A stretch of DNA of 64,000 nucleotides, taken from the NCBI GenBank assembly GCA_902798205.1, contig CADBVV010000004.1:21572-85571 (forward strand), written 5' to 3'. Below, piece by piece: positions 26,026 through 51,421 of this stretch. Made by a program: the position numbers and the translations under genes. This stretch comes from an uncultured Pseudomonadota bacterium. Lineage in GTDB: Bacteria > Pseudomonadota > Alphaproteobacteria > Rs-D84. Under the pieces are notes generated by a model. It saw only the letters and a program-made list of their open reading frames with translations, was not told where the DNA came from and searched no databases. Numbering within the stretch: position 1 is the stretch's first letter; the number at the start of each line of letters is the position of its first letter.

Positions 26026-26155
26026 TTCTTTCCCCCTGCGTAATTAAATAACGATACGATTATAGTGTTATAAATAAAATATTGCAAGTTTAAAAAATTA
26101 TTTTCTTGTAAAAAATTATGAAAATTTTTATTGTCCACACAGAAAGGAGTCAAAA

Positions 26156-27178
26156 ATGAAATGGTCAATCATATTAGCAATTATCGTAATTTTCGGAATT
26201 TTGGGATATTTTCTTATACCATGCAACAAATGGGATAATGTGTTTCCAAAGAACCCAAATGTTATCACACAAAAGGTACATTTTCACAATCGTTATGGTA
26301 TAAAACTTACTGGCGATTTATATATGCCTAAAAATAAATCCGCCGAAAAAATGCCGGCCATCGCAATATCTGGTCCATTTGGTGCGGTCAAAGAACAATC
26401 ATCTGGATTGTATGCCCAAGAAATGGCCGCACGTGGATTTATAACTTTGGCTTTTGATCCATCGTTTACTGGCGAAAGTGGTGGAGATGTTCGTTATGTC
26501 GCATCCCCAGATATAAACACCGAAGATTTTTCTGCGGCTGTTGATTATTTGAGCAACCGCAAAGATGTTGATGCAGAAAAAATCGGTATTATTGGTATTT
26601 GTGGGTGGGGTGGCATGGCAATTAATGCAGCGGCCATGGATACACGTATAAAAGCAACTGTTGCATCAACAATGTATGATATGACACGTGTTACGGCTAA
26701 TGGTTATTTTGATGCAGACGATAATGCAGATGCACGTTTTGCAACCAAAAAGTCATTAAACGAACAACGCACAATTGATTATAAAAACGGCAAATACGAT
26801 TTGGCCGGCGGTGTTGTTGACCCATTACCAGAAGATGCACCACAATTTGTAAAAGATTATTATGCATATTACAAAACACCACGTGGTTATCATAAACGTT
26901 CATTAAATTCTAATGGTGGATGGAACAAGACAAGTTCTTTGTCTTTTATCAATATGCCTATTTTACAACGCGCAGATGAAATACGCACACCTGTATTATT
27001 AGTGCATGGCGAAAACGCACACAGCCGTTATTTCAGCGAAGGCGCCTTTGCTAAATTAACTGGCGACAACAAAGAATTGATGATAATTCCTGGTGCAAAC
27101 CATGTTGATTTATATGACAACATGGAAAAAATACCATTTAATAAATTAGAACAATTCTTTAAAACAAATTTGAAATAA
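26156..27178 (+). CDS. alpha/beta hydrolase, dienelactone-hydrolase-like (GxCxG nucleophile elbow)
   Basis: AAAGGAG Shine-Dalgarno and N-terminal TM segment. The GICGWGG motif suggests a Cys nucleophile as in dienelactone hydrolases. Confidence 0.5.
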   Translation: MKWSIILAIIVIFGILGYFLIPCNKWDNVFPKNPNVITQKVHFHNRYGIKLTGDLYMPKNKSAEKMPAIAISGPFGAVKEQSSGLYAQEMAARGFITLAFDPSFTGESGGDVRYVASPDINTEDFSAAVDYLSNRKDVDAEKIGIIGICGWGGMAINAAAMDTRIKATVASTMYDMTRVTANGYFDADDNADARFATKKSLNEQRTIDYKNGKYDLAGGVVDPLPEDAPQFVKDYYAYYKTPRGYHKRSLNSNGGWNKTSSLSFINMPILQRADEIRTPVLLVHGENAHSRYFSEGAFAKLTGDNKELMIIPGANHVDLYDNMEKIPFNKLEQFFKTNLK

Positions 27179-27190
27179 AAAGGACAAACG

Positions 27191-27703
27191 ATGAAAATAT
27201 TGGTATTAAACGGCAGTCCAACCCCAAATGGTAACACAATCGCATTGGTAAACGCTTTCAAAGAAGGTGCCGAATCCAAGGGACACGATGTCAATGTTGT
27301 AAATGTTGCCCACAAAAATATCAAGGGATGTATGGCATGTAATTTCTGCAAACGTAACAACGGTCAATGCGTTCAAAAAGATGATATGCAAGAAATTTAC
27401 CCATTGATTCAAGACGCAGATATGATTGTATTCGCATCACCAATTTACTATTTCATTATGTCTGGACAATTGGAATCTGTTATCCATCGTTTCTATGCAA
27501 TAAATGCGCCAGAAAAAGCAAAATACAGTGCGTTGTTATTGTCGTCTTATTCACCAAATGTTTATACCGGCGCAATCGCACAATACAAAGATATGATTGC
27601 GTATATGGGTATGTCTGACAAAGGTATTGTAACGGCAGATAATTCAACAAATAAAACACCTGCAAAACTGGCGGAAGCACGTGCATTGGGCGAAAGTTTA
27701 TAA
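27191..27703 (+). CDS. NAD(P)H-dependent FMN reductase / flavodoxin-like oxidoreductase
   Basis: MKILVLNGSPTPNGNT N-terminus, typical of the FMN_red family. Confidence 0.6.
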   Translation: MKILVLNGSPTPNGNTIALVNAFKEGAESKGHDVNVVNVAHKNIKGCMACNFCKRNNGQCVQKDDMQEIYPLIQDADMIVFASPIYYFIMSGQLESVIHRFYAINAPEKAKYSALLLSSYSPNVYTGAIAQYKDMIAYMGMSDKGIVTADNSTNKTPAKLAEARALGESL

Positions 27704-27718
27704 TTACAGGGGGACAAC

Positions 27719-28252
27719 ATGAAAAAAATTTTGTTTATTTTATCATTATTTTTGCCATTTATGGCACATGCGGATAACAACAAAATCTTGGTTGCATATT
27801 TCAGTGCAACCGGAACAACTGCAGAAGTCGCACAAAAATTGGCAACCGCTATAAATGCTGATTTATTCGAAATTGTACCAGAACAACCGTATACATCTGA
27901 TGATTTGAATTGGCAAAACAATCAAAGTCGTACATCGATTGAAATGGGCGACAAAAATTCACGTCCCGCAATCGCATCAAAAATCGAAGACATATCGCAA
28001 TACAATATTGTCTTTGTTGGATCACCAATCTGGTGGGGACGCGAACCATCCATAATGGATACATTTATCGAAAGTTATGATTTTGCCGGCAAAACAGTGA
28101 TACCATTTGCCACATCAGGCAGCAGTGGTATCGGTGATTACGGTGCAAATTTACAAGCATTGGCACCAGATGCAAAAGTTCTGACAGGAAAAAGATTTCC
28201 GGCCGATGTTTCAGGTGAAGAATTAAAAACCTGGGCCGACGAACAAATGTAA
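27719..28252 (+). CDS. flavodoxin-family protein with N-terminal signal peptide
   Basis: Signal peptide MKKILFILSLFLPFMAHA followed by KILVAYFSATGTTAEVA, a flavodoxin-like FMN-binding start. Confidence 0.5.
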   Translation: MKKILFILSLFLPFMAHADNNKILVAYFSATGTTAEVAQKLATAINADLFEIVPEQPYTSDDLNWQNNQSRTSIEMGDKNSRPAIASKIEDISQYNIVFVGSPIWWGREPSIMDTFIESYDFAGKTVIPFATSGSSGIGDYGANLQALAPDAKVLTGKRFPADVSGEELKTWADEQM

Positions 28253-28291
28253 AAAACACCGCCACTTTGGGCGGTATTTTAATTTATGGGG
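28253..28291. repeat. 39-bp direct repeat copy A (terminator hairpin CACCGCC-ACTTT-GGGCGGT plus TATTTTAATTTATGGGG)
   Basis: Exact 39-mer repeated at 28517..28555. Confidence 0.85.
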
Positions 28292-28379
28292 CGGGAGAAC
28301 CTTCCTCAATACACAATCTCCTATTCACGAAGTTTGTATGCTCGATTTTTAAACCTTGCTAACGCTGCGGTAAAAATCG

Positions 28380-28505
28380 GCATCGGGTGACCAGATTGCT
28401 TCGCTGTCGCTACGTTCCCTTGGCTCGTTCGCTTTGCGAACCGGCATACTTCCGTTTGCCTCTCGCCTGCGGGTCGAACTGGCTTCTGCCGGTTCTAAAA
28501 TCTGG
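28380..28505 (-). pseudogene. tRNA-His-derived 3' fragment (anticodon-stem 3' side to acceptor 3' strand) interrupted by a 77-nt GC-rich insert in the T-loop; putative attL region
   Basis: Minus strand reads GCCAGTTCGA, then 77 nt, then AATCTGGTCACCCG. The intact tRNA-His at 40835..40912 reads GCCAGTTCGAATCTGGTCACCCGCC. 28384..28397 is an exact 14-bp repeat of the tRNA-His 3' end. Confidence 0.45.
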
Positions 28506-28516
28506 TCACACCTAAT

Positions 28517-28555
28517 AAATTAAAACACCGCCACTTTGGGCGGTATTTTAATTTA
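28517..28555. repeat. 39-bp direct repeat copy B
   Basis: Identical to 28253..28291. The two copies bracket the GC-rich tRNA-His-like fragment. Confidence 0.85.
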
Positions 28556-28656
28556 TGGGGCCCCGATTTTGACACAACACCACCAGATATTGTGCAGGAA
28601 ACCTTGGGGTTATCACATTTATTAACTGAAATTATGGACGAAATAGAAAAAACATA

Positions 28657-28685
28657 TTTACAACCTGACTTTGATACATTATAAT
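28657..28685 (+). promoter_or_regulatory. sigma70-like promoter (TTTACA-N17-TATAAT) upstream of hipB
   Basis: Near-consensus -35 and -10 hexamers with a 17-nt spacer, about 28 nt upstream of the hipB ATG. Confidence 0.4.
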
Positions 28686-28713
28686 ATAATATATTATCTA
28701 AAATGGATTAAAA

Positions 28714-28998
28714 ATGACAGAATTAGACAACATATTATCTATTAAACAAGGTATCGCTAAAAGATTGCATACAGCACGCAGAAACACCAAAATTTCACAG
28801 ATTGTTTTGGCACAGCGTTCTGGCGTTTCGCTTGGATCTATCAAACGTTTTGAAAGAACGGGTGAGATATCTTTGTCATCTTTACTAAAACTTGCGATGG
28901 TTTTGGGTTATGAATCTGATTTTAATACCCTGTTCACACGCAAGAATTATCAATCCATATTCGATGTAGTAAAAGACGGGGGCAACAATGCAAAATAA
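28714..28998 (+). CDS. hipB: HTH XRE-family antitoxin (HipB-like)
   Basis: HTH_XRE signature QIVLAQRSGVSLGSIKRFERTG. Overlaps the start of hipA by 11 nt. Confidence 0.7.
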   Translation: MTELDNILSIKQGIAKRLHTARRNTKISQIVLAQRSGVSLGSIKRFERTGEISLSSLLKLAMVLGYESDFNTLFTRKNYQSIFDVVKDGGNNAK

Positions 28999-30109
28999 AA
29001 TGTTAATCGTAAAATATCATGGTTCTATTGTTGGTCGTTTGGCATTAACACCTGATAATCTTATGGCTTTTGAATACGATGCCGGCTGGTTGGAAAACGG
29101 GTTCAGTATATCACCTTTCAAACTACCACTGGAAAAGAAAGTTTTTATTGCTAATCGCGACCCGTTTGATGGTGTATTTGGGGTATTTAACGATTGCTTG
29201 CCTGATAACTGGGGGAAATTATTGGTAAATCGTGAACTACAAAGACGTGGCATAGCACCAAACAGTATATCTGTCCTGGACAGATTAGCCATAGTTGGGA
29301 AAAATGGTCCTGGGGCCTTGGAATTTGAACCAAGTGAAGATTTTGCCCAAGAATACAAAGATTCTGATTTGGATACCATCGCCAACGAAATCAACAAAAT
29401 CATTGACGATGCAACTGTTATTACCGAAGATTCTGTTACCGAAGAATTATTCAGAATTGGTGGTTCGTCTGGTGGCACACGTCCAAAGATATTCCGTAAA
29501 TTCGAAGATGGCGATTGGATTATAAAGTTTCGTGCTGCCGTTGATCCTGCGGACATTGGCAAAAAGGAATTTGATATTATGGAATTGGCACAAAAAGCAG
29601 GTCTGGAAGCACCAGAACACAAATTATTCAATAACAAGTATTTTGGTGTAAAACGTTTTGACAGAAAACCAAATGGCGAAAAAGTGTTTATGATTTCTGC
29701 ATCGGGTTTATTAGATGCAGACCACAACCAACCTGTATTAGATTATACTGATTTGTTATCATTAACCGCAAAACTTACCCGTAATATGGTTGAAGTCGAA
29801 AAGATGTTCCGCCTTATGGTGTTTAACGTTTGGATAAACAACACAGACGACCATGCAAAGAACTTTGCATTTTTATATGATGGCAAAGATTGGAAATTAT
29901 CCCCTGCTTTCGACCTTACCCAGACAGTTGGGACATGGGAACACGCAACATCTGTAAATCACAAAGGCACAAATATAACCGGTGCAGACACACTGGCTGT
30001 GGCACATAAAATCGGTCTGACCGACAAACAAGCCGGCGATATTATGCTGGAAGTCAAAGATGCTATAGATCAATGGGATGAACAACATGGAACTAAAACC
30101 AAAAGATAG
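28988..30109 (+). CDS. hipA: HipA-family serine/threonine kinase toxin
   Basis: HipA N-terminal domain (LIVKYHGSIVGRL...), catalytic loop DDHAKNFAF and NVWINNTDDH. Confidence 0.8.
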   Translation: MQNKMLIVKYHGSIVGRLALTPDNLMAFEYDAGWLENGFSISPFKLPLEKKVFIANRDPFDGVFGVFNDCLPDNWGKLLVNRELQRRGIAPNSISVLDRLAIVGKNGPGALEFEPSEDFAQEYKDSDLDTIANEINKIIDDATVITEDSVTEELFRIGGSSGGTRPKIFRKFEDGDWIIKFRAAVDPADIGKKEFDIMELAQKAGLEAPEHKLFNNKYFGVKRFDRKPNGEKVFMISASGLLDADHNQPVLDYTDLLSLTAKLTRNMVEVEKMFRLMVFNVWINNTDDHAKNFAFLYDGKDWKLSPAFDLTQTVGTWEHATSVNHKGTNITGADTLAVAHKIGLTDKQAGDIMLEVKDAIDQWDEQHGTKTKR

Positions 30110-30719
30110 AGAAAAACTTAACCATCTTGTCTCTGAACTATTTAAAATGGCTTTAAGTGCCTATGTTGATTGCTTTATTTACCTGGAATCCCACCTCCGC
30201 AAAAACAATAGTTTTATTTTTATTTATAGTAGAAGTGCTATCCAAGAACGATTGATTATCGCAGTCAAAAAACTTATAGAACCTGCCAAATCTGATAAGC
30301 TCACAATGTTTTCTATAGGCAAAATTATCGAAAAACCAGATTTTTGTGATAGTTTACAAGACAAAAAAGGCATAAAATATATTTACACAGATAGATTAAA
30401 AGAAATTTTCAATTCGGTTCATGCTAAAAGATTAAAAGACATGAGAGATGCCTTCTGTCATAATTTTTGCGACGAAAAGAATGGGATACGTGGATATTGC
30501 AAAGATTTTATGATTGTTCTACAAGAATGTTTGAATATACTATCTGACGTTAAAGAACAAATACTGGATCAACCAGAAACAAGATTTCAACAAGTAAAAG
30601 ATTTAGCATTAAAAATATCCAAAGATTATTGGAATTGTGTGATATCTGGTGCAAAAAAATCTAAAATAACAGATAAAGATTTAAAAATGCTATCCTCTTT
30701 TATTGGCAACATGCTATAA
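30078..30719 (+). CDS. hypothetical alpha-helical protein with HEPN-like Rx4HN motif; third gene of the hipBA operon
   Basis: Overlaps the hipA 3' end by 32 nt. Contains RDAFCHNF (Rx4H followed by N). 213 aa. No other recognised domain. Confidence 0.35.
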   Translation: MNNMELKPKDREKLNHLVSELFKMALSAYVDCFIYLESHLRKNNSFIFIYSRSAIQERLIIAVKKLIEPAKSDKLTMFSIGKIIEKPDFCDSLQDKKGIKYIYTDRLKEIFNSVHAKRLKDMRDAFCHNFCDEKNGIRGYCKDFMIVLQECLNILSDVKEQILDQPETRFQQVKDLALKISKDYWNCVISGAKKSKITDKDLKMLSSFIGNML

Positions 30720-30720
30720 C

Positions 30721-31305
30721 CTAGATCTTTGCTAATTCGACAGCATTCATTAATTGTTGCGGATTATGGTTATAATATCTCTGAGTGGTCTGAATATTTC
30801 TGTGATTCACAAGTGTTTTTACTAAAAATGGATTTGTTCCGTTGTTAATCAATTTGGTTATAAACATGTGCCTGCCAAGATGCGAAGCCCCATGAATACC
30901 AAATTTGTTATAAATATCGTGAAATATTCTGCTGATTGATACCCTGTTAAAAGGTTTATTCATTTTCTGTGATGTAAACAAATAAGTATCAGGTTGCAAT
31001 TTATCACCATATTTCTTTTTCAAATATTCATGGTATACTTCAAATTCTTTCTTAAACTGTTTGTTAACATAATATTGAGCCGCGAATTTTCCCTTGTTTT
31101 TATCTTTACCCAAATCAATAACATTCTTAACAGACCCATCTGGGTTATATATGTCTTTTAATTGCAAATAAGCAAAATTAATACTTCTCATCCCATTGAT
31201 AGAACAAAAGAACATCATACGAAGCATGTCACCATGATTCAACCCTTTTATATAAGTCAAAATATCTTTGATCTGGCTGTCAGATATAAAATCGCCATTT
31301 ACCAT
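30721..31305 (-). CDS. tyrosine recombinase, catalytic domain only (194 aa; truncated or minimal integrase)
   Basis: Conserved Arg (INGMRS), HLGRH box and C-terminal TTQRYY with the nucleophile Tyr. The N-terminal core-binding domain is absent. Confidence 0.6.
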   Translation of the reverse strand: MVNGDFISDSQIKDILTYIKGLNHGDMLRMMFFCSINGMRSINFAYLQLKDIYNPDGSVKNVIDLGKDKNKGKFAAQYYVNKQFKKEFEVYHEYLKKKYGDKLQPDTYLFTSQKMNKPFNRVSISRIFHDIYNKFGIHGASHLGRHMFITKLINNGTNPFLVKTLVNHRNIQTTQRYYNHNPQQLMNAVELAKI

Positions 31306-31482
31306 AAAAACCCTTTTATAATGTTAAACTTTATGTATTATTTAAGTATATATTAACATTTTTATATTGTCAACAGATTCGATTTGCACAAAAAAGCCTA
31401 ATTTCAGCCTATTCCGTCAATAATGTTAAAGAATGATGCTTTTTTAACATTTTATTGCGTACTAAGCACAGAGTAATATATA

Positions 31483-32955
31483 TTAATACTCCAAATTCTC
31501 GTCAAAAACTTCTATTTCTTCTTGTCTGATAGGAAGAGCTAAATGTTTAATCAGACGAATATTAACAAGTTTGCAGGCCAACAACTCAGATCTAACATGT
31601 GGTTTCAACCATGAATTATTCCATAGATTTATATTATCATCAGATATTAATTTACATAATGTTGGTACATAATCCAAATTTTCTCCGCACGCTAAACTTA
31701 ATCGTTGTATCCATATATACACAAAATCTGTATATGCTTTTTTATCAAACTTATTTTTTATACATCTTATAAAGCCAAATCTATCAGATACCGACATACG
31801 TTTTAAAATTTTACTTATAATCGCAAAAGCTTGCGGAATAACTTTTGGATTATTAAAAGCTATATCAAGCATTATATTTAACAACAACTCAAGATCATCA
31901 TTCTTATTAAATCTAATTTTCTTATTTATTTTACCTATACATGTTTGTAAAACGCCAGAATTTTCGAATCTTTTAGCAAATTCGTATAACACAAGAAATA
32001 AATTCTGCTTATCTTGTCTATATTCTGGCCATATATAAAATTTTTCATTTCTTATTGATCCTGTTATAACATCCGATGTTAAACACGTTTTTTCTGAATT
32101 TAATTTTAACCCAAGATTTCTACAAATATCATTTATAAGCTTAATAATTAGTTCTGTATCTTTTATACTGTTTGTAAAAATTCTATAATCATCTCTGTAA
32201 CGTAAAATTTTGTAATCTGAAATATTATTTGCTTCGATTTTATTTGTAAGCAAAACATCTATATACCCAAATACAGTTTCTGCTATAAAATCCATAAGCA
32301 CAGACCCCTGAGGTATACCATTTGTTTGTCCATAGGATAAATTACTAAGCTTAGAATCTAAAACATTACCAAAATTCTCTTTTTTACCCCTATGCTGTTT
32401 TGCAAAATCCACCCCATAAAAAGCCCACGGTATCACATGTGTATATATAGACGAATAACAATCAGATATATCTGTACAAGCCATATATGCAAAAAACATT
32501 GATAATTTAGCAGACTCTTTTTCAAACTTACTTATCCAATTATTAATCTGACTTCCTTTTTGCTTTCTCTTATGTTCCGGAAGAACTGGTATACTAGAAA
32601 CACAAATATTTGGATTTTTTCTGAATTCTCTAAATTTATTTTGTAAAAACAACCAATTTTCTTCAGAACAAATACAATTCACTAAATCAACATACAATAT
32701 AGGGTTAACAGCCGTCAATTTACGCCAAGAATAATTGTTATTTTTATTTATAACTATATCATAATTTACATTTTCTATCTGACTAGGATTTTGGTTCTGT
32801 ATGTCTTTTAACTCCTTATCTTTTAACAAACCATCTGCCACATTCAAAATTTCTTGGAAAGAAAAATACTGTGGCAAATCCCCAGTGAAATAATTTTCAC
32901 TTTTCAAGAAGAATTTTTTTGCATCCTTTGCTGTTAAATCTAACACTGTTGCCAT
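31483..32955 (-). CDS. standalone reverse transcriptase, retron/Abi-like (defence-associated RT candidate)
   Basis: RT motifs: motif 1 TDISDCYSSI; motif 4 NGIPQGSVLMDFIAE; motif 5 ILRYRDDYRIF, a YxDD variant; motif 6/7 GLKLNSEKT. About 150-aa N-terminal and C-terminal extensions. No maturase or endonuclease domain. Confidence 0.75.
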   Translation of the reverse strand: MATVLDLTAKDAKKFFLKSENYFTGDLPQYFSFQEILNVADGLLKDKELKDIQNQNPSQIENVNYDIVINKNNNYSWRKLTAVNPILYVDLVNCICSEENWLFLQNKFREFRKNPNICVSSIPVLPEHKRKQKGSQINNWISKFEKESAKLSMFFAYMACTDISDCYSSIYTHVIPWAFYGVDFAKQHRGKKENFGNVLDSKLSNLSYGQTNGIPQGSVLMDFIAETVFGYIDVLLTNKIEANNISDYKILRYRDDYRIFTNSIKDTELIIKLINDICRNLGLKLNSEKTCLTSDVITGSIRNEKFYIWPEYRQDKQNLFLVLYEFAKRFENSGVLQTCIGKINKKIRFNKNDDLELLLNIMLDIAFNNPKVIPQAFAIISKILKRMSVSDRFGFIRCIKNKFDKKAYTDFVYIWIQRLSLACGENLDYVPTLCKLISDDNINLWNNSWLKPHVRSELLACKLVNIRLIKHLALPIRQEEIEVFDENLEY

Positions 32956-33165
32956 ATGATTTGTCCTAAACTGTAATAACTTTGATTAAGTATAGGTTAA
33001 AAATCCGAATTATCAAGCTCATCTTTCGATTTTTATATGTTATTTATGTTCCAAATATGTTTCATAATTCGAATACTTTATGGTATTCGTTGTTCAAATT
33101 TAAACTTTATATTTGAAAACCTTTAACAAACACTATATCATAAAGAAACAAAAGGTTTGTTTTAT

Positions 33166-35319
33166 ATGATGTTAAAAGAAATAGACAAGGCATTATTAAA
33201 AGCGGTATTAAAAAACGATTCAAACGAAGTGAAAAAGCTCATAAAAGCTGGTGCAAATATTACTTCAAGATTTGATGACGACGATACTTACTTGCATTGT
33301 GTAAAGAACAAAGAAATAGCAGAATTATTAATTAAAGCTGGGGCAGATGTAAACGCAAAAAACAAATCCGGCTTAACACCTTTGTATCGTGCGGAAAATT
33401 TAGAAATAGCAAAACTATTAATCAAACATGGTGCTGACATAAAAATAACCTTACCTAACGGTTATACTGTCCTACATGCAGCAATTTTTCTTAAAAAATT
33501 GGATCTTGCAAAACTTTTCATTGAATATGGTGTAGATGTTGATTCAAAAAGCGAAGAAGGGATAACCCCTTTACATTTGTCACCTACCCCTGAAGCAGCG
33601 GAATTATTAATAGAAAATAATGCAAACATGTATATAGGAGAAAACGTATTCAACACACCTCTTCATTATGCTATAAAAAACAATAACTACGATGTTGCAG
33701 AATTCTTAATAGATGCTGGTATTTGCAACAATAAACACCGAGAATTGTGCTATGATATTTTTCAAAAGACAATAGAATATAATAATATAAAAACATTAAA
33801 ATACTTGATAGAATATGGCATTACATCTGCAGAAACAAAATATACTGTGCCACTATTAAAGATTGCTCTACACTACAAAAATTATGAAATTTGCAATTTA
33901 TTAATTAATAATAATGCGTGTGTTAATTTCTGTGACAAAGAAGGACAAACACCTCTACACACAGCGATTATAATAAGAAACACCGAACTTGCAGAAAATT
34001 TGATAAAACACCATGCAAAAATCAACGCAAGTGACAAAACAGAAAAAACTCCTTTACATTATGCAGCCATAAATGATGACATAGAACTAATTTCACTTTT
34101 GATAAAATACGGAGCCAATATTAATGTCAAAGACAAAGACGGAAACACACCTCTACACTTTGTTAGAGACACAAAATCTGCACTGTGCTTAATTGAACAA
34201 GATGCAGATGTCAACGCAAAGAACAACGAAGGCATAACTCCTTTACATTGGGCAGATAGTGTTGAATTAGCAGATTTGTTAATTAAATATGGAGCAGATG
34301 TTAATGCCACAAACAACAATGGCGTTACACCTTTATACTGGGTAAAAGACTATGATTTAGCAAGGTTATTAATAAATAACGGTGCAGACGTTAATGCATC
34401 CAATAAAGACGGAGCAACCCCATTACATATACAGGACAACCCAAAAATAGCCGAACTATTAATAGAGAAAGGTGCAAATGTTACTGCAAAAATAAAAAAT
34501 GGTGATACTCCACTACATTGGATTGAAAACCCAGAAACAGCAGAGCTATTGATTAAACACGGGGCAGATGTTAAAGCTACAAATAATAATAATGTTACCC
34601 CTTTGCATTGGGCTGAAAACGCACAAATAGCAGAATTATTAGTAAAACACGGTGCCAACATTAATGCAAAAACATCTTTATCTAATTTTACTCCTCTGGA
34701 TTTAGCTATTAAAAACAGTCATTTTGATGTTGTAGATTTTTTAATAGAATGTAAAGCAACTATAAAAAGCCCTAAAAAACTACTTCTTTGGGCTTTAGAT
34801 AATAACAGAACAAACCTAGCACAAAAACTTCTTAAAAACAAATCTATTAAGAATACAAACTCAACTGGCGATACATTATTGCATACAGTACAAACTATTG
34901 ATGGGGTACATTTGTTAATATCAAACGGTATAGATATTAATACAAAAAACAAAAATGGTGCGACCCCATTACATTTAGCGAAAAAACTAGAAATAATAAA
35001 CACATTGATAGAAAACGGTGCAAAAATAGAATCAACCGACAATGAAGGTAAAACACCTTTGTTTTATTATATAATATTCTGTAAAAATGCGGAACGTGCT
35101 AGCTGTTTATTAAAATATGGAGCAAATGTTAATGCAAGAGACAGTGATGGTATGACACCCTTACATTTTGTGCGTTCTATAACGACAGCACAAATATTAA
35201 TTGATTATGGGGCCGACATTAATGCCATAGACAGTCACGGGAAAACGCCTTTATTTTATGCAAAGAAACGTAATAATTCTGCATTAGTTAGATATCTTAA
35301 ATCTATTGGGGCAAAATAA
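33166..35319 (+). CDS. ankyrin-repeat protein (about 20 ANK repeats, 717 aa)
   Basis: Repeated TPLH.A.......LLI..GADVNAKN consensus throughout. ATG at 33166 after AAAGG; the ORF-track start at 33157 is a TTG. Confidence 0.85.
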   Translation: MMLKEIDKALLKAVLKNDSNEVKKLIKAGANITSRFDDDDTYLHCVKNKEIAELLIKAGADVNAKNKSGLTPLYRAENLEIAKLLIKHGADIKITLPNGYTVLHAAIFLKKLDLAKLFIEYGVDVDSKSEEGITPLHLSPTPEAAELLIENNANMYIGENVFNTPLHYAIKNNNYDVAEFLIDAGICNNKHRELCYDIFQKTIEYNNIKTLKYLIEYGITSAETKYTVPLLKIALHYKNYEICNLLINNNACVNFCDKEGQTPLHTAIIIRNTELAENLIKHHAKINASDKTEKTPLHYAAINDDIELISLLIKYGANINVKDKDGNTPLHFVRDTKSALCLIEQDADVNAKNNEGITPLHWADSVELADLLIKYGADVNATNNNGVTPLYWVKDYDLARLLINNGADVNASNKDGATPLHIQDNPKIAELLIEKGANVTAKIKNGDTPLHWIENPETAELLIKHGADVKATNNNNVTPLHWAENAQIAELLVKHGANINAKTSLSNFTPLDLAIKNSHFDVVDFLIECKATIKSPKKLLLWALDNNRTNLAQKLLKNKSIKNTNSTGDTLLHTVQTIDGVHLLISNGIDINTKNKNGATPLHLAKKLEIINTLIENGAKIESTDNEGKTPLFYYIIFCKNAERASCLLKYGANVNARDSDGMTPLHFVRSITTAQILIDYGADINAIDSHGKTPLFYAKKRNNSALVRYLKSIGAK

Positions 35320-35432
35320 CATCTGCTTTTCTATAAAAAAGCATGGGCTAAAAAACACAAAACAAACATATAGACACACACTAAAAAACGTTTAATTATT
35401 CAAACATTACGTAGAATCAAAAAGGTTGTGAT

Positions 35433-36179
35433 ATGAATGATCTGACTATCGTAGATTTACTAACTTCTGTTATTCCAAGAACTGCTACAAGCGGAACTCT
35501 TTTAAAGGCATATTGGAAAAAACAATTAGACGAAAAAATGGAAATAGCATTGTCCGAAATTCGTCAAGGAGCACTTGATAAAATAAATATGGAAGATAGA
35601 ATTTCTATAGCATATAGAATTTGTAGATCTATATCTGAGGGCATTGCCAATCATAATTTTAAGTTGATTTGTCGATTGTTACAAGGCTTAAGCAATAATA
35701 ACAAATTGTCAGCAAAAACATTTAATCGTTTTTCCTCTATTTTAGAAACACTAACAGAAGAAGAACTAAAAGTCATCGCATATGATATATGGATGTATAA
35801 AAACCCTAAACCAAAAATTTCAACAGAAACCAGAACAAAAACAGAAAAAGGTCCAACATTTATAATATTGAAAGAATCAGAAGAATATAAAGATTGGAAA
35901 ACAAAAGCATTGGAATTTATAAATTCATTAAATATCAAAATAAACACAAATGATATTTTTGATCGTCTCGTATCTGGAGGAAAATACATTATAAAAGGCG
36001 AAAATCCATTTTCTACAATTCATTATTCACTATTGAGAACGGGTTTGTATTCTTTAGATATATTAACAAAACAAAAAAACGAAGTGGGCGATGGCAAAGG
36101 ATGTCCCATATTTGAACTTTCTCCATTGATGATGGAACTAATGGATTATATTGATATTTATTTAGACAACAACTTTTAA
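35433..36179 (+). CDS. hypothetical protein (248 aa)
   Basis: ATG with an AAAGG Shine-Dalgarno. No recognisable motifs. Confidence 0.4.
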   Translation: MNDLTIVDLLTSVIPRTATSGTLLKAYWKKQLDEKMEIALSEIRQGALDKINMEDRISIAYRICRSISEGIANHNFKLICRLLQGLSNNNKLSAKTFNRFSSILETLTEEELKVIAYDIWMYKNPKPKISTETRTKTEKGPTFIILKESEEYKDWKTKALEFINSLNIKINTNDIFDRLVSGGKYIIKGENPFSTIHYSLLRTGLYSLDILTKQKNEVGDGKGCPIFELSPLMMELMDYIDIYLDNNF

Positions 36180-36444
36180 AACACAAATCTAAGTAACTCT
36201 CATATATTTCCTTATTTATTCTATATTTTTACTTTTTTCTAAAATATGACAAATGGTGGTATGTTGTACCACCTTTTCTAATAATATGATTCAATTTTAG
36301 TGTTCAGGTTTGGGCAACCCATAGGTTACTTATACCAAAATATCTGTATAAAATCCCATATATAAAAAGCGATTTTATTAAGTTATAGAAATCACATTTT
36401 GTTATAAAAATGTGTTCTTATTATACAGGTAACAAAGGACATAT

Positions 36445-36675
36445 ATGATTGCTAATAATTTGTTTTATCCAGATACATTACTTACGATTTCTGAAGTCTC
36501 TAAAATTAGTGGTTTCAGCAAATCCACATTGTATAAAGATATAAGCAAATCTAAACACAACCACATAGAACCTATGTTGCCATTCTGCAAACTGGGTGGT
36601 CGAATATTTTATCGTTCCAGAGATATCCACTCTGTGATTGATAAAGCATTCGATAGGTCATTAAACTTCTTTTAA
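36445..36675 (+). CDS. AlpA-like phage transcriptional regulator / excisionase (HTH_17)
   Basis: LLTISEVSKISGFSKSTLYKDI...GGRIFYRSRDIHSVI matches the AlpA/Xis family pattern. Confidence 0.6.
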   Translation: MIANNLFYPDTLLTISEVSKISGFSKSTLYKDISKSKHNHIEPMLPFCKLGGRIFYRSRDIHSVIDKAFDRSLNFF

Positions 36676-36773
36676 CAACTTGTTATATCTCCTATTGTTT
36701 GTTGTTAAATGTCCTATATACCTCTTTACTATACCTCACTAAGCTCTAAATTCCACCCAGCTTGCAGTATTGT

Positions 36774-37583
36774 TTATTTGCCCTTACGTTTTCTTTTTCT
36801 GCTTTCCATATAACAATTAATATACTTTTCAAGCACAGTACCACGAAGCCCAAATTCTTCTTGTAATAACTTACGTAACTGCTGTATTTGTTCGTATATT
36901 CTAGAAGCCTTAAAACCGAGAGCTATTCTTTTAAAATCAAGTATCAACCCACGTTTGATATCACTTCTTTTAAAGAATCTTACCCTTAATAAAGCTTCTT
37001 GTTCTTCTGGTAATGGGAATTTCACATTTAATGCTATGTTTGAAGGTATTAAATATGCAGTACTTCCAAGCTTGTCAGATTTTGTGTATATGTACTTTTG
37101 GTTATCTCGGTTATGGTTTTTCCATTCTTTGATACAGTACCTTATACACCCATCCTGATTGTAAATCTTTCTGACATCGATACAATCTTTTCTTAAGCCT
37201 TTTTGTCCTGCCACATACCGAAAAGCTCTTCGTAAAGCCCTCTTTGTAACAAACTTATTCTTAAGGGTCAGAATATGGTAGTGGGTTAAAGCACCTGTCC
37301 TGCCAAACTCCTTAAACCCAAAGAACTGTAAAGCATGTCTACTCTGCTTGTAGTGTTTCCCAAACAGATACAATTCCACATGGTGCATAAATGAACCAAA
37401 CAGCTTATCATAGTTGATTTTGCCGTATATCCCTTCTGCACCAGTGCCTAACAAGCTTGGGGTAAAGGTTACAAAGTACCCCAACCTGTACTTATTCAGC
37501 CAATCCAGAACACCTTTCTGAATGGCAGAAAGTTTTTCATCTTTTAGCTGAAAAATATTTTTTTCTTTTTTTAACTTTTTCAT
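36774..37583 (-). CDS. HUH-superfamily rolling-circle replication initiator (Rep)
   Basis: Motif I YFVTFTP, motif II THYHIL (HUH), motif III RYCIKEWK (YxxK). Basic C-terminus. Confidence 0.55.
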   Translation of the reverse strand: MKKLKKEKNIFQLKDEKLSAIQKGVLDWLNKYRLGYFVTFTPSLLGTGAEGIYGKINYDKLFGSFMHHVELYLFGKHYKQSRHALQFFGFKEFGRTGALTHYHILTLKNKFVTKRALRRAFRYVAGQKGLRKDCIDVRKIYNQDGCIRYCIKEWKNHNRDNQKYIYTKSDKLGSTAYLIPSNIALNVKFPLPEEQEALLRVRFFKRSDIKRGLILDFKRIALGFKASRIYEQIQQLRKLLQEEFGLRGTVLEKYINCYMESRKRKRKGK

Positions 37584-37882
37584 GATTTAATCCTTTATGT
37601 AAAAAAAAGCAAAAAAGCCCTTATTGCGAGAGCAGGAAAATTTTCTGTTCGCATTGTTTAAAGAGATATCGTGTTGGATTCTTGTAATAGTAAACAATTA
37701 TTGAGTCCCCACTAATAGCTCTTGTCTATTAAGTAGAACTCAAAATTTTCCACGGTTTTGTATTTTTAGGATTAATAAAATTTTTTTATTTTTTTGGGTC
37801 AGAAATCTTTTTCCACGAGTTCTTAAAAGTTAAGAAGTGTGAGGGTCACGCTTCTATAACCTTTAAGAAAAGAAGTTTAAAG

Positions 37883-39316
37883 ATGTCTAAAATTGTAAGT
37901 AAAATAAATGCGTTAGGTATAGCAAGAGTGTCAACAAAAAGCCAATGTGATTCATTGGAATCACAAAAAAAAAGAATTTGTACATACTGTGATTCCCATA
38001 CGGAATTAGATTTAAAAAGAATAGAAAATTTAAAAGAATCCGCATATTGTTTAAAACCAGGTTTATTAGATGAAATACTTGGGGCCACTGTAAAAAATCA
38101 AGCCATTATATTGGACAAAGTGGATCGTTTAACCCGTAACCACAAAGACATACCTTTTTTTGAAAAATTAATAGATGAACGGAACATATCTTTTCATTTC
38201 ATACAAGAAAACATTGTTTGGGATCAAAATACAACAAGAGACCTGGTAACAAAAATTGTTGCATATATAAATAAGGCTGAAGAAGAATCCGACAGTACAT
38301 CCAAACGAACAAAAAATTGTAACATTATTATGCGAGAACACGGGAAGATAAGCACCCCTGCCCCTTTTGGTTATATTAATTATGCCGAAGGTGAAGAAAA
38401 AGGTTGGAAACCGCATAAAGTAAATTCAAAATACGTAAAAGAGCTGTTTGAAATGTATGCTACTGGCAATTACTCAATCAGAACCATCACAGAAATATTG
38501 AACAAGAAATATGGCAAATCTTTAAAAAAACCATTATCACATCAACATGCTGCAAGTTTGTTACACAACAAATTCTTTATTGGTATTGCCTGTCATGATG
38601 GTGTCGAATATAAACACATATATAAAACATTTATAACCAAAGAGATTTTTGATAAATGTCAGGTTATATTCAAACAGAATGAAAAATCAAAGAAAGATCC
38701 AAAAGTACTTATTTCACCACTTTATGGTATGGTACGAGACAAAAACACAGGTGCCTTATTCACTCCATACAGAAATAAATGTAAAAAACGTAATTATCTG
38801 AAGACAAAAGATTCAAACCTTGGCAATTTATCTGAACAAACCGTTATTAAAGGTATCAAAGAAGCATTAAAGAATTTAAACAAAGATAAAGATGTTGTCG
38901 ATATTTTATCAAATCAACTGAATATCGATGTCAAAGAAAACTTAGACTCTTTGACCCAAAAAGCTAAGAATGAAGCAGAAACAATAAACAAATTAGAAAA
39001 TAGATTAGTATCTATATTAACTGAAAATTTGAGTATGAGCGAAGAATATATGAACAAATCTATTCAAAATATTCATAAAAAAATAGAAACCCATAAATCT
39101 ATATTGAATAACTATACAGTAAACATCGAAAAGATTAAAAAAGATGTTATTGATGTAAAAGGTGATTTGTTCGAATTTTTCGGGACACTTAGCACACCAA
39201 ATCAAACCAAGATGTTGAAAATATTATTTTCTGAAATTCAGTATAACAATAACTGTTTTATATATAAATTCCAGAAACATATTAAACACAACTCTGTCAA
39301 TTATCAATTCAGATAA
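37883..39316 (+). CDS. large serine recombinase
   Basis: N-terminal resolvase catalytic domain (GIARVSTKSQ with the Ser nucleophile), recombinase domain and C-terminal coiled-coil. 477 aa. Confidence 0.8.
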   Translation: MSKIVSKINALGIARVSTKSQCDSLESQKKRICTYCDSHTELDLKRIENLKESAYCLKPGLLDEILGATVKNQAIILDKVDRLTRNHKDIPFFEKLIDERNISFHFIQENIVWDQNTTRDLVTKIVAYINKAEEESDSTSKRTKNCNIIMREHGKISTPAPFGYINYAEGEEKGWKPHKVNSKYVKELFEMYATGNYSIRTITEILNKKYGKSLKKPLSHQHAASLLHNKFFIGIACHDGVEYKHIYKTFITKEIFDKCQVIFKQNEKSKKDPKVLISPLYGMVRDKNTGALFTPYRNKCKKRNYLKTKDSNLGNLSEQTVIKGIKEALKNLNKDKDVVDILSNQLNIDVKENLDSLTQKAKNEAETINKLENRLVSILTENLSMSEEYMNKSIQNIHKKIETHKSILNNYTVNIEKIKKDVIDVKGDLFEFFGTLSTPNQTKMLKILFSEIQYNNNCFIYKFQKHIKHNSVNYQFR

Positions 39317-39385
39317 GTATATTTTGTAATATGGGTTGCTTTTGGATTGCAAACATTCCAAACTCTATACAGAAAGGGGTTTGGA

Positions 39386-40846
39386 ATGAAAGCGATTCTC
39401 TTAGCCAGAGTTAGCAGCAAAGAACAAGAAGAAGGCCATAGTTTAGTTGCTCAACTTGACCGTTTGCATGCTTATTGTGAACGTAAAAATTTAGATATTA
39501 TCCAAGAATTTACTCTGGTTGAAAGTTCTACCAGAGGCGAAAGACCAGAGTTCCAAAAAATGATCGCTTATATTAAAAAGCAACATGAAAAAGTAGCCCT
39601 GGTATGTGATAAGGTTGACCGTTTACAGAGATCCTTTAGAGAGGTTCCTGTCCTTGAACAATTACATAAATCCGAAAAATTAGTCCTGCATTTTGTAAGT
39701 GAAAACCAAATACTTGATTCTGGGGCCAACAATTCGCAAATTATGGCCTATCAAATATTTGTTATGATGGCTGAAAATTACACCAACTGTATCAGCGATA
39801 ACGTAAAACGTTCTTTTGAGAAAAAGATTAAAGAAGGCAGTATTTTAACCTTTGCACCCATAGGGTATTTAAACGTCACCATAGATGGTGTAAATACCGT
39901 TATAATAGATCCTATCCGTGGTCCAAAAGTTCGCATGTTATTTGAAAAATATGCCACCGGAACAGTATCCATACACCAGCTTGCCCGATATGCTGTTGAA
40001 ATCGGTCTGTTATCAAAGAAGAACACACAAATATCCCCACAACAAATTCACTTTATCATAGCCAACCCATTCTACTATGGCATGATGAGAATCAAAGGCA
40101 AACTGTACCAGCATTCATACAAAACACTTATAACTAAAGACATGTTTGACCTATGTGCAAATATAAGGACAGGACGAAACACAAATGTTTGCAAAAGAAA
40201 GAATCCTGATATGTTATTGGCTGGTTTAGTCAGGTGTCCACTTTGTGGCAAAGCATATTCCCCATATTTAGCCAAAAATAAATATATTTTCCTGCACCAG
40301 CCACGTGATAAAAACTGTGTACACCATCACTTGTCTGCAAAACCTATCCTGAAACAAATAAACGATGTTTTACAAGCATTACACTTTAAACCAGAACACA
40401 AAGAAAGCATTCTTGCTAACCTAGAAAAGAAGAAAACAGAAGCAATCATCAAACGAGACGAATACATAGCCAGACTTTATGAAGATCGAACTAAATTAAT
40501 AGCCAAGAAAAGTAGATTAACCGACCTGTATTTAGATCGTGGTATAGATAGAGAAGAATACGATAAAATCACCAATCAAATAAGTAATGAACAACAAGAT
40601 TTACAACTGAAAATTGATGGTTTAGACGACAGAATTTCCGCTTTTTATGACAATCTTATCAAATGTGTAAAAATCGCAGATATCAGCCATTTTTTGTTAA
40701 AAAGTTCGAACTTTCACAAAAAACAGCTTATTTTAAAATTGATAAGTTCGAACTTTTTTATAGACGATAAAAATCCAGTAATTTCAATAAGATACCCCTT
40801 TGAAAACATGCTTCAAAGGGGTTATCGTCAAGACTGGGGCGGGTGA
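39386..40846 (+). CDS. large serine recombinase (second, tandem); 3' end overlaps tRNA-His 3' end
   Basis: AILLARVSSKEQ catalytic motif. Zinc ribbon RCPLCGK...C.HHH. The stop codon lies within the tRNA-His acceptor-stem sequence. Confidence 0.8.
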   Translation: MKAILLARVSSKEQEEGHSLVAQLDRLHAYCERKNLDIIQEFTLVESSTRGERPEFQKMIAYIKKQHEKVALVCDKVDRLQRSFREVPVLEQLHKSEKLVLHFVSENQILDSGANNSQIMAYQIFVMMAENYTNCISDNVKRSFEKKIKEGSILTFAPIGYLNVTIDGVNTVIIDPIRGPKVRMLFEKYATGTVSIHQLARYAVEIGLLSKKNTQISPQQIHFIIANPFYYGMMRIKGKLYQHSYKTLITKDMFDLCANIRTGRNTNVCKRKNPDMLLAGLVRCPLCGKAYSPYLAKNKYIFLHQPRDKNCVHHHLSAKPILKQINDVLQALHFKPEHKESILANLEKKKTEAIIKRDEYIARLYEDRTKLIAKKSRLTDLYLDRGIDREEYDKITNQISNEQQDLQLKIDGLDDRISAFYDNLIKCVKIADISHFLLKSSNFHKKQLILKLISSNFFIDDKNPVISIRYPFENMLQRGYRQDWGG

Positions 40847-40912
40847 CCAGATTCGAACTGGCGACATTCGGTACCACAAACCGACGCTCTAACCAACTGA
40901 GCTACACCCGCC
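40835..40912 (-). tRNA. tRNA-His (anticodon GUG) with G-1 and encoded CCA
   Basis: GGCGGGTG-TA-GCTCAGTTGGTTAGAGC-G-TCGGT-TTGTGGT-ACCGA-ATGTC-GCCAG-TTCGAAT-CTGGT-CACCCGC-C-CCA. The cloverleaf folds, with an extra 5' G pairing with the discriminator C73. Confidence 0.9.
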
Positions 40913-40932: not shown

Positions 40933-41008
40933 TGGTGGAGCTGATCAGACTCGAACTGACGACCCCTTGCATGCCATGCAAGTGCTCTACCAACTGAGCT
41001 ACAACCCC
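40933..41008 (-). tRNA. tRNA-Ala (anticodon GGC) with G3:U70 identity pair
   Basis: GGGGTTG-TA-GCTCAGTTGGTAGAGC-A-CTTGC-ATGGCAT-GCAAG-GGGTC-GTCAG-TTCGAGT-CTGAT-CAGCTCC-A-CCA. Confidence 0.9.
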
Positions 41009-44176: not shown

Positions 44177-44188
44177 AAGGGAAACAAA

Positions 44189-44431
44189 ATGGCAAAAAAT
44201 ATTCATCAGATGCATTTTAGTGCGATAATACCTGTGTATGGACTTTATCAGGCTAGACACACAGCCAAATCATTTGATTCTACTGTTGTTGCGTTACTTG
44301 GTCATAAAAACATTTGTATGTTAATCAATAAAGACTCGAGCCTGATAGAAGCGCGACAAGAATATGAAGATAAATTGAAATTCTTTGTGGACATCGAATT
44401 AAAAAAACAAGAATACAGAAGAAACAGATAG
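44189..44431 (+). CDS. hypothetical small protein (80 aa)
   Basis: ATG with an AAAGGG Shine-Dalgarno. No motif. Sits between rseP and bamA. Confidence 0.3.
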   Translation: MAKNIHQMHFSAIIPVYGLYQARHTAKSFDSTVVALLGHKNICMLINKDSSLIEARQEYEDKLKFFVDIELKKQEYRRNR

Positions 44432-44441
44432 GGTAATAATT

Positions 44442-44669
44442 ATGGCAACACAAGTTTATACACCAAAACCATTAATGAATTTAAGAGAAGCAATCGAACA
44501 TGCTATTGTTTTAGCACGTGCTTCAAATTCAAAAATCATTATTTCAATGAATGACGTTCGTTTTTCTGTTGACCCGGACACACAAATACAAACCGCTATT
44601 GATACTTATCTCGAAGTTCAAAAGAAAATGTTCGAAACAACAAAACAATTAAAACAAAAAACAAAATGA
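44442..44669 (+). CDS. hypothetical small protein (75 aa)
   Basis: ATG start. Its stop overlaps the bamA start (ATGA). Confidence 0.3.
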   Translation: MATQVYTPKPLMNLREAIEHAIVLARASNSKIIISMNDVRFSVDPDTQIQTAIDTYLEVQKKMFETTKQLKQKTK

Positions 44670-51400: not shown

Positions 51401-51421
51401 TTTAATATTCCTTTTGTTTGG

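Follow-up and report, generated by a model that had tools for sequence, protein, structure and literature searches.

tRNA genes are textbook targets of tyrosine integrases, and the locus considered here raises the question of what kind of element has come to lie against the 3' end of one, where exactly that element begins and ends, and which enzyme placed it there. The window analysed is a 64,000-nucleotide stretch of contig CADBVV010000004.1 (GenBank assembly GCA_902798205.1, positions 21,572 to 85,571 of the forward strand) from an uncultured alphaproteobacterium of the Rs-D84 lineage, for which a preliminary description had proposed a mobile island inserted at the 3' end of tRNA-His. This proposal was borne out by comparison with related contigs: window 28562..40840 is very probably a 12.3-kb integrative genomic island in a rumen/gut alphaproteobacterium, with the mechanism set out below, in which a large serine recombinase (LSR) carries the attachment (att) site of the free element within its own reading frame.

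The boundaries follow from contigs chosen because they encode exactly the flavodoxin and the ribosome-recycling factor of the window. Three of them, L001, L003 and L004, are free of the island; in BLAST they match the window as far as 28561 and again from 40835, the two alignments overlapping by 6 nt, and their left flank is 98.2% and their right flank 99.2-99.9% identical. Two others, L002 and L006, match the window at 100% identity, island included. This is a precise presence/absence polymorphism between near-identical contigs, and the insert measures 12,279 bp if one copy of the core is counted. The flanking direct repeat is the 6-bp TGGGGC, which corresponds to the last six nucleotides (GCCCCA) of tRNA-His. 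In the empty site of L001 the flavodoxin stop is followed by a terminator, a 269-bp segment, a second terminator copy and then TGGGGC/GGGTGACCAGATTCGAAC, which is already tRNA-His (here and below a slash marks the join). A target-derived flanking repeat, a restored target gene and a recombinase gene at one end are all present, and the G+C fraction is 0.27-0.33 inside the island against 0.36-0.42 in the flanks. As previously described, the tRNA-His(GUG) gene is intact; it is 100% identical in L008 and L012, both of which lack this island, and is followed by tRNA-Ala at 40933..41008 (ARAGORN, Rfam), the Rfam scan of the whole window matching these two tRNAs and nothing else.

The same contigs correct the extent first assigned to the island, which had been taken to start at about 28380, to span roughly 12.5 kb and to consist of accessory sequence throughout, with a 14-bp copy of the tRNA 3' end, CGGGTGACCAGATT, as its left attachment site. 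The 14-mer is exact and non-random (exactly two copies, at 28384 and 40840, where chance would give 0.01) and lies inside a tRNA-His-like fragment. It is not the att repeat, however, since the segment containing it, 28293..28561, is also carried by the island-free contigs, which join 28561 to 40835, and the relatives L008, L010 and L012 have variants of this segment without the island as well. Positions 28380..28561 thus lie outside the insert and 28398..28561 is resident sequence, so that next to no credence remains for an island of about 12.5 kb reaching from a 14-bp attL at 28384 to the tRNA. The empty site that had been predicted was found in near-identical contigs, except that flavodoxin and tRNA-His are not directly adjacent there, a 269-bp relic standing between them.

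This relic is flanked by a 40-nt direct repeat, both copies of which are also present in L001. It contains pieces resembling the 3' end of tRNA-His at 28384-28397 and 28474-28483 and, as an inverted copy, at 28500-28513; the sequences concerned are TGGGGCGGG (at the end of the first repeat), CGGGTGACCAGATT, TCGAACTGGC and, inverted, AATCTGGTCACACC. The related strains L008, L010 and L012 have one to three diverged relic units whose number and content vary. The predicted RNA folds much more strongly than shuffled sequences (z = -8.7), and Rfam gave no match even in a permissive scan of 28150-28750. A structured small RNA was considered and is disfavoured, as the few variants show decay rather than compensatory changes. 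The relic could represent scars of earlier integrations at tRNA-His or a small non-autonomous element, and a repeated invasion of the site is plausible for this older segment outside the island only. The neighbourhood downstream of tRNA-His is a variable hotspot. As separate observations, in L012-L014 the hydrolase, FMN-reductase and flavodoxin genes (window 26088-28280) are missing and a SIMPL-family region joins the relic and tRNA-His directly; in L008, a 95-97% identical strain, another occupant, a 181-aa minus-strand open reading frame (ORF; 986-1531), lies between the flavodoxin gene and the relic, and a GC-rich insertion of ~110 nt (1871-2002) separates tRNA-His from tRNA-Ala.

With the ends fixed, the attachment sites could be written out (Table 1), using CGTCAAGACTGGGGCCCCGATTTTGACAC as junction string for attP, the site of the free element, and TTAATTTATGGGGCGGGTGACCAGATT for attB, the empty target. 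The reconstructed attP core region, GTCAAGACTGGGG/CCCCGATTTTGAC, joins window 40827-40840 to 28562-28574 and forms an imperfect palindrome, GTCAA-N4-GGGG/CCCC-N4-TTGAC, the dyad centre of which is the palindromic dinucleotide GC (GGG-GC-CCC), as it is in the related islands L020 and L021.

Two tandem LSR genes are present at the tRNA-proximal end, as had been described. The outer one, LSR2, has an ORF of 499 codons, 486 aa from the ATG at 39386, and the same contig has a gene call of 486 aa. Its catalytic motif reads LARVSSKEQ, with R8 and S10 invariant in an alignment of its homologues (A1); it retains the cysteine C284, which is invariant in A1, and C287, which is at least 90% conserved, and the protein matches PHROG 95 'integrase' at 2.9e-59. 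The reported overlap of its stop with the tRNA was confirmed: the ORF stops at 40846, 12 nt within the tRNA, its final codons (GGC GGG TGA) fall within the att core or past it, and the stop codon is tRNA-His sequence. The inner gene, LSR1, is 27% identical to LSR2; with neither a Zn_ribbon_recom match nor any CxxC it has no recognisable zinc ribbon, and it is an LSR-like paralogue, not a canonical integrase. Its family is narrow (13 clusters at an identity of at least 39%) and PF13408 is found in none of the 13. In the mechanism proposed here recombination of attP with attB would be catalysed by LSR2, through a cut within TGGGGC staggered by 2 bp, and LSR1 would be its obligate partner, by analogy with CcrA for CcrB; the HTH_17 protein encoded in the island might serve as excision or regulatory factor and the protein with HUH-like motifs might replicate or mobilise the excised circle, while HipBA would stabilise the island and AbiP2, perhaps together with the ankyrin protein, would defend against phage.

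The island also encodes a short tyrosine recombinase, and by the classical paradigm of tRNA islands this enzyme rather than the LSRs would have carried out the integration. In its favour, tyrosine integrases classically use tRNA 3' ends (PMC4383910) and the gene is conserved in the backbone described below. Against such a role, a flanking identity of just 6 bp is what serine recombinases, not tyrosine integrases, typically leave, the gene is set 2.2 kb into the island, its product is without an N-terminal DNA-binding domain, and relatives of LSR2 are found at tRNA 3' ends in many lineages, with the att core within their own frame and on phages and elements of quite different content. Integration by the tyrosine recombinase is accordingly regarded as extremely unlikely, and LSR2 remains the preferred integrase.

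The attP of the tRNA-His island lies inside the LSR2 reading frame. If the right end of the island is joined to its left end, the LSR2 frame is extended by 39 codons to 525 aa (...RQDWG/PDFDTTPPDIVQETLGLSHLLTEIMDEIEKTYLQPDFDTL, then stop), while the integrated frame ends in ...WGG with a TGA supplied by the tRNA, so that the integrated and the free states would make different enzymes. The excised circle would encode a 525-aa LSR2, integration would sever a conserved tail of ~40 aa and substitute Gly-Gly-stop, and the difference between the two forms could provide a built-in switch of activity, stability or directionality. Six further attL junctions of related islands (L020, L021 and L089-L092) give, with the window, five distinct tail sequences. 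In all five the tail is open for 33-42 codons (the shared WG counted) in the LSR2 frame alone, the other frames being full of stops, and they share the pattern P(D/E)FDT..P(D/E).V(Q/R)..(L/I).L...L..E(I/V). The integrated C-terminus, in contrast, varies with the host tRNA sequence and is thus arbitrary: where a host tRNA-His has GGGCGACC in place of GGGTGACC, the integrated protein continues as WGGRPDSNWRHSVPQTDALTN before its stop (WGGRPDSNWRH... as against WGG and stop).

Free forms were found in other subclades among the 120 best representatives of the LSR2 family (P0001-P0120), in matched pairs of free and integrated proteins whose sequences agree fully or nearly so as far as the crossover. 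P0104 (tail WLW/VVDNLRTHYTEIEELK...), encoded on a phage contig with baseplate and lysis genes, pairs with P0085 (WLG/NLDSNQD), P0083 pairs with P0029, and P0008 pairs with P0007. P0008 (L018) was also considered as a free tRNA-Asn element, as it diverges exactly past 'SWLG'; this is doubtful, as host-like genes flank it and the contig is not circular. P0021, a free-form LSR of 525 aa, is encoded on L093 (12,016 bp; Logan SRR21686423), whose 30-bp terminal overlap indicates that it is probably circular; as L093 also carries a type I restriction-modification-like pair, HigB/HTH and SocA_Panacea, it is a candidate for an unintegrated element with defence cargo.

The tail ORF might nevertheless be untranslated, its conservation reflecting DNA constraints (the attP half-site, or a promoter or operator of hipB) combined with chance openness. 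The tail region is short, its first ~25 nt are an attP arm that mirrors the left arm (GTCAA...TTGAC), and its first ~8 codons overlap the attP half-site, so that part of the conservation is a constraint at the DNA level. Moreover, the ratios of nonsynonymous to synonymous differences (pN/pS, Nei-Gojobori), 0.09-0.23 among close variants and 0.3-0.8 against the window, are estimates resting on about 20-30 codons. A full-length protein of the tRNA-His subfamily was not found either, a phmmer search with the 42-aa tail against 1.84 billion representatives returning one spurious repetitive protein; the library keeps one protein per 50% cluster, however, so that a full-length LSR2 would hide behind the integrated form. 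On the other side, the LSR2 frame alone is open in all five variants. The low pN/pS holds without the first ten codons, lying at 0.09-0.45 in most pairs beyond codon 10, and the tails of L020 and L021 differ by six synonymous and three residue-changing differences and one stop-for-stop swap. In addition, free-form relatives in other subclades have long tails that are not tRNA-derived, four of them sharing the motif (L/V)VDxxRT near the tail start. An untranslated tail is therefore considered unlikely, though it has to be taken seriously, and a translated tail that is exchanged upon integration is preferred.

Other observations weigh against the reading of the locus as a mobile island driven by LSR2. 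For the tRNA-His subfamily, neither an excised circle nor an attP junction turned up in viral contigs or JGI metagenomes, the search pattern TGGGGCCCCGANTTTGACAC giving 0 matches in the former and 5 in the latter, all of them attL, and the empty sites could have been never occupied rather than excised. The island lacks transfer machinery, neither conjugation nor virion genes having been detected in it with Pfam, PADLOC, NCBIfam or PHROGs. The zinc ribbon of LSR2 (PF13408) scores 20.7 bits, below the Pfam cut-off of 25.3. The dyad centre of attP on GC would not alone define the polarity of a serine-recombinase site and would be unusual for a serine integrase; it may be relevant to why the tRNA-His subclade has two different LSRs. 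The 269-aa protein, finally, has weak matches to RepB initiators (E 0.3-0.4), a word index gave three homologues, and in alignment A2 its HUH-like and YxxK-like motifs are invariant across proteins sharing just 20-22% identity; these two short motifs suggest a HUH rolling-circle Rep or relaxase, a profile search against the PDB was empty, and an AlphaFold2 model built on a 4-sequence alignment was unusable (pLDDT 38.6).

The missing circular forms and the lack of conjugation or packaging genes would also fit a fixed, immobile remnant, the presence/absence pattern then going back to one old insertion and lineage sorting. This is difficult to reconcile with backbone ORFs that are all intact, with the many cargo variants on the same backbone, with occupied and empty contigs that are 98-99.9% identical in their flanks and with the sharing of island segments between diverged hosts. 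In L015, the chromosome is 81-88% identical to that of the window and parts of the island are 97-100% identical (DNA segments 97-98%), which indicates recent horizontal spread and module exchange. A remnant is accordingly quite unlikely, and a mobile island remains the favoured reading.

Related islands show which of the genes belong together. The backbone runs attL, LSR2 tail, short tyrosine recombinase, HTH_17 protein, HUH-motif protein, LSR1, LSR2, attR. Homologues of LSR2 with 70-85% identity in other contigs and metagenome-assembled genomes (MAGs), the closest named genomes being 'Candidatus Enterousia sp.' MAGs and other gut/rumen Alphaproteobacteria, adjoin tRNA-His, tRNA-Ala and frr. 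The LSR1-LSR2 pair is present in L015, L016, L020-L025, L029, L037 and L095-L097 and adjoins an annotated tRNA-His in most of these loci; in L096 and L097 it adjoins frr, the contig of L095 ends in tRNA-His, and those of L017 and L024 stop short of the tRNA. Upstream of the pair, L015, L016 and L020 have a homologue of the 269-aa protein, on the minus strand, together with an HTH gene, whose HTH_17 match is weak or faint in L015 and L016 and whose candidate counterpart in L020 is a 78-aa ORF at the same position; tblastn located further homologues of the 269-aa protein in L021, L022, L025, L029 and L037. L015 and L020 also have the short tyrosine recombinase, of 194 aa in both. Each backbone gene outside the LSR pair was thereby verified in two to four islands. 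The island in L020 has both ends, measures 8.4 kb and has its attL at 3082.

The cargo is wholly different among the islands, with a RelA_SpoT-domain protein, a 1021-aa protein and HipA in L015, UvrD/PDDEXK, two N6_N4 methyltransferases and a ResIII/TnsA-like protein in L016 and L095, and GmrSD, PLD and methyltransferases in L096. This bears on the suggestion in the preliminary description that the island is composite or repeatedly invaded, two LSR elements having landed side by side next to a decayed tyrosine-integrase element. Three recombinase genes do lie within 12 kb, LSR1 and LSR2 share just 27% identity, and modules do recombine: between L015 (8498-11461) and the window (37883-40846) the LSR1 proteins are 100% and the LSR2 proteins 85% identical, which implies that backbones recombine internally, between LSR1 and LSR2. 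In all tRNA-His loci with enough upstream DNA, LSR2 nevertheless has an LSR1 homologue (44-100% identity) directly upstream, with a spacer of ~50-70 nt; the pair is kept down to 39% LSR1 identity, and of the LSR1 family two members examined individually (39% and 44% identical) each lie directly upstream of an LSR2-type gene. The tyrosine recombinase, which had been called truncated, is present as described and is not truncated, since its 194 aa align without gaps, at 74% identity, with those of L020, where LSR2 is 71% identical. Within the island no att-like junctions were seen. As the backbone genes recur together while the cargo differs, the conserved backbone argues against a composite built by serial invasions, which is rated very unlikely, and for a single element with exchangeable cargo.

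The association of such recombinases with tRNA 3' ends extends beyond tRNA-His. In 94 of the 120 representatives the C-terminus reads as antisense tRNA, 7 ending in ...WGG and 87 having (D/E/G)SN motifs (such as ...WLGQLDSNQRHTD, ...LGRKDSNLRMPGPKPGALPLGDAP or DSNQRP); TGG is the antisense of CCA and GAT TCG AAC that of the T-loop, which identifies these C-termini as translations of antisense tRNA. The tRNA context was examined at 73 loci, and in about 50 of them the antisense tRNA 3' end overlaps or abuts the LSR 3' end, the targets being tRNA-His (~13), Asn (~17), Gln (~17), Pro (5), Trp (2), Arg (1) and Glu (1, abutting). Hosts of the clade include, among others, Alphaproteobacteria (with Rickettsiales and Micavibrio), Melainabacteria/Gastranaerophilales, Gammaproteobacteria and a Fusobacterium MAG. 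Elements of the Asn type carry just one LSR. Separately, a tRNA-Gln subclade (L054, L061, L070-L078 and L083) was seen to have a second serine-recombinase-like ORF (~250-aa match) immediately before the main LSR; paired recombinases may have evolved on more than one occasion. Public gene calls of the clade (e.g. L096 9579-11093) include the chimeric antisense-tRNA C-termini, an annotation artefact; such C-termini also mark the integrated state and the targeted tRNA.

According to a standard resource, serine integrases are not known to use tRNA genes (PMC4383910), a review of integrative mobilizable elements places the insertion of serine-recombinase elements within protein genes (PMC5704250), and a large LSR discovery paper nowhere mentions tRNA (PMC10083194). 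No description of serine integrases that target tRNA genes was found in the literature, the coverage of which was incomplete, a mention in the TIGER paper being possible (doi 10.1093/nar/gkaa156). It can be put forward tentatively, and with more doubt than confidence, that these proteins form a widespread, essentially undescribed LSR clade specialised for tRNA 3' termini, which keeps attP in its own frame so that the tail swap produces functionally different integrases and acts as a directionality or regulatory switch, and whose tRNA-His subclade has added a partner LSR without zinc ribbon, perhaps supplying the site polarity that a crossover at a palindromic GC could not provide.

Besides the recombinases the island carries the genes listed in Table 1. 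The HipB and HipA genes overlap by 11 nt and HipA has both its N- and C-terminal domains, as is characteristic of HipBA, and the AbiP2 model match spans residues 1-487 of 490. The cargo of HipBA, AbiP2 reverse transcriptase and ankyrin protein would serve phage defence or addiction. The HTH_17 protein is a candidate directionality factor or regulator. The NCBIfam model of a 200-aa tyrosine invertase covers the 194-aa recombinase almost end to end, below its cut-off, and a search for the inverted repeats of an invertible segment gave just AT-rich pairs at chance level.

Table 1. Features of the tRNA-His island and its resident flank (window coordinates), with att sequences
Feature	Position	Strand	Evidence or sequence
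40-nt direct repeat, first copy (flavodoxin terminator + TGGGGC), resident	28253..28292	+	two 100% identical copies, spacing 269
Resident relic with 14-mer, long inverted-repeat structure, then terminator	28293..28555	.	in L001, L003, L004
attL core TGGGGC, left repeat copy	28556..28561	+	empty-site BLAST, att reconstruction
Stranded LSR2 3' end ('tail'), WGPDFDTTPPDIVQETLGLSHLLTEIMDEIEKTYLQPDFDTL and stop	28556..28684	+	joined frame 525 aa; first ~25 nt = attP right half-site
HipB-like helix-turn-helix antitoxin, cargo	28714-28998	+	Pfam HTH_3 3.2e-6
HipA-family kinase toxin, cargo	28988-30109	+	HipA_C 7.9e-46, Couple_hipA 4.6e-18
213-aa protein, cargo	30078..30719	+	no match in Pfam, PADLOC, NCBIfam, PHROGs
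Short 194-aa tyrosine recombinase, catalytic domain only, backbone	30721..31305	-	Pfam Phage_integrase 1.2e-18
AbiP2-type defence reverse transcriptase, cargo	31483..32955	-	PADLOC AbiP2 (PDLC03744) 4.7e-164; Pfam RVT_1 6e-11
720-aa ankyrin-repeat protein, cargo	33157..35319	+	Pfam Ank_2 1.7e-144; PADLOC candidate PDC-M72A 1.3e-100; 90-nt repeat families
248-aa protein	35433..36179	+	no family match (Pfam, PADLOC, NCBIfam, PHROGs)
76-aa HTH_17 (excisionase/AlpA-type) DNA-binding protein, backbone	36445..36675	+	Pfam HTH_17 5.1e-6
269-aa protein, HUH-like (H101-x-H103-I) and YxxK-like (Y149-C-I-K) motifs, backbone	36774..37583	-	alignment A2
LSR1, 477-aa large serine recombinase paralogue	37883..39316	+	Pfam Resolvase 1.2e-15, Recombinase 6.9e-9
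LSR2, 486-aa large serine recombinase	39386..40846	+	Resolvase (PF00239) 1.1e-20, Recombinase (PF07508) 1.5e-11, Zn_ribbon_recom 5.5e-4
attR core TGGGGC, right repeat copy, last 6 nt of tRNA-His	40835..40840	+	empty-site BLAST, att reconstruction
tRNA-His(GTG), intact integration target, 3' end at 40835	40835..40911	-	ARAGORN; Rfam tRNA 68.2 bits
attB			TTTATGGGGC/GGGTGACC
attL			TTTATGGGGC/CCCGATTTTGAC
attR			CAAGACTGGGGC/GGGTGACC
attP (reconstructed)			CGTCAAGACTGGGGC/CCCGATTTTGACAC

An integrative island with defence cargo is a known kind of element, and the present one resembles several described systems in part. With classical tRNA-linked islands and prophages of the Islander/TIGER type it shares insertion at a tRNA 3' end with restoration of the tRNA, a recombinase gene at the tRNA-proximal edge, strain-variable accessory or defence cargo and low G+C; unlike in those, the edge enzyme is an LSR, the flanking identity is 6 bp rather than tens of bp, and there is no long displaced tRNA fragment. 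SCCmec with CcrA and CcrB likewise has two tandem, distantly related LSR genes (27% identical here) and variable cargo, and it inserts at the very 3' terminus of a conserved housekeeping gene that is not inactivated thereby. The target here is tRNA-His and not rlmH (orfX), however, the hosts are Gram-negative Alphaproteobacteria and the att core lies inside the LSR2 reading frame. The NCBIfam matches to CcrA (70.8 bits against a cut-off of 700) and CcrC (61.2 against 900) are weak and far from equivalog level, and a 42%-identical homologue carries the source name 'cassette chromosome recombinase B'; in gene context, LSR1 and LSR2 co-occur strictly.

The phage large serine integrases (Bxb1, phiC31, A118/LI, SPbeta) have the same order of resolvase domain, recombinase domain, zinc ribbon (putative in LSR2) and coiled coil and short att sites with an imperfect dyad and minimal core identity, but their targets are usually protein-coding, attP has not been described within the integrase frame, and a single protein acts with a recombination directionality factor. 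The SSV1-type archaeal tyrosine integrases, in which attP lies in the integrase gene, the target is a tRNA and the full protein is made from the free form alone, resemble it in design (PMC8371274). This is an analogy of design and not membership, since the enzyme superfamily and the domain of life are different and since here just the last ~40 codons are severed, the integrated copy keeping all recognised domains. In cluster G-type mycobacteriophages attP also lies in a reading frame, and integration changes the C-terminus and the behaviour of the protein (integration-dependent immunity); there the truncated gene is the repressor and the integrase is a tyrosine recombinase, whereas here the serine integrase itself would be altered. 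As in P2/P4-like defence hotspots, the cargo includes a full-length AbiP2-type reverse transcriptase, and sister islands have swapped in other defence-type cargo (restriction-modification/methyltransferase genes with a ResIII helicase, GmrSD, PLD or the RelA_SpoT-domain protein), the carrier being a small serine-recombinase island and not a P2 prophage or P4 satellite.

What is unusual is the use of serine recombinases at tRNA 3' ends, the tandem pair with its putatively obligate partner, and an attP in the integrase frame with a tail swap. The locus provides a cleanly delimited example of this, in which attB, attL and attR can be read directly and attP is reconstructed. Programs that detect islands by matching tyrosine integrases to tRNA fragments would miss such elements or place their ends wrongly, as the 14-mer shows, and gene callers produce integrases whose chimeric C-termini derive from antisense tRNA. 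For genome engineering, tRNA attB sites that are short and highly conserved, together with the LSRs that fit them, would make attractive landing pads, and the tail swap, if true, offers an idea of how a serine integrase could sense its integration state. The islands are furthermore small, swappable carriers of defence genes in poorly known gut/rumen Alphaproteobacteria.

Two further features of the window lie apart from the island. Terminase large subunit (T7-like) and head-tail connector genes are encoded on the minus strand at ~50,200-51,700 (L005 19060-20561), downstream of the bamA region, and are shared by contigs with and without the island, so that they probably belong to a podovirus-type prophage or remnant. 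Between rseP and bamA, the short stretch at window 44188-44635 is hypervariable and unalignable across strains, with two small ORFs that measure 71 and 78 aa in some contigs and 80 and 75 aa in others.

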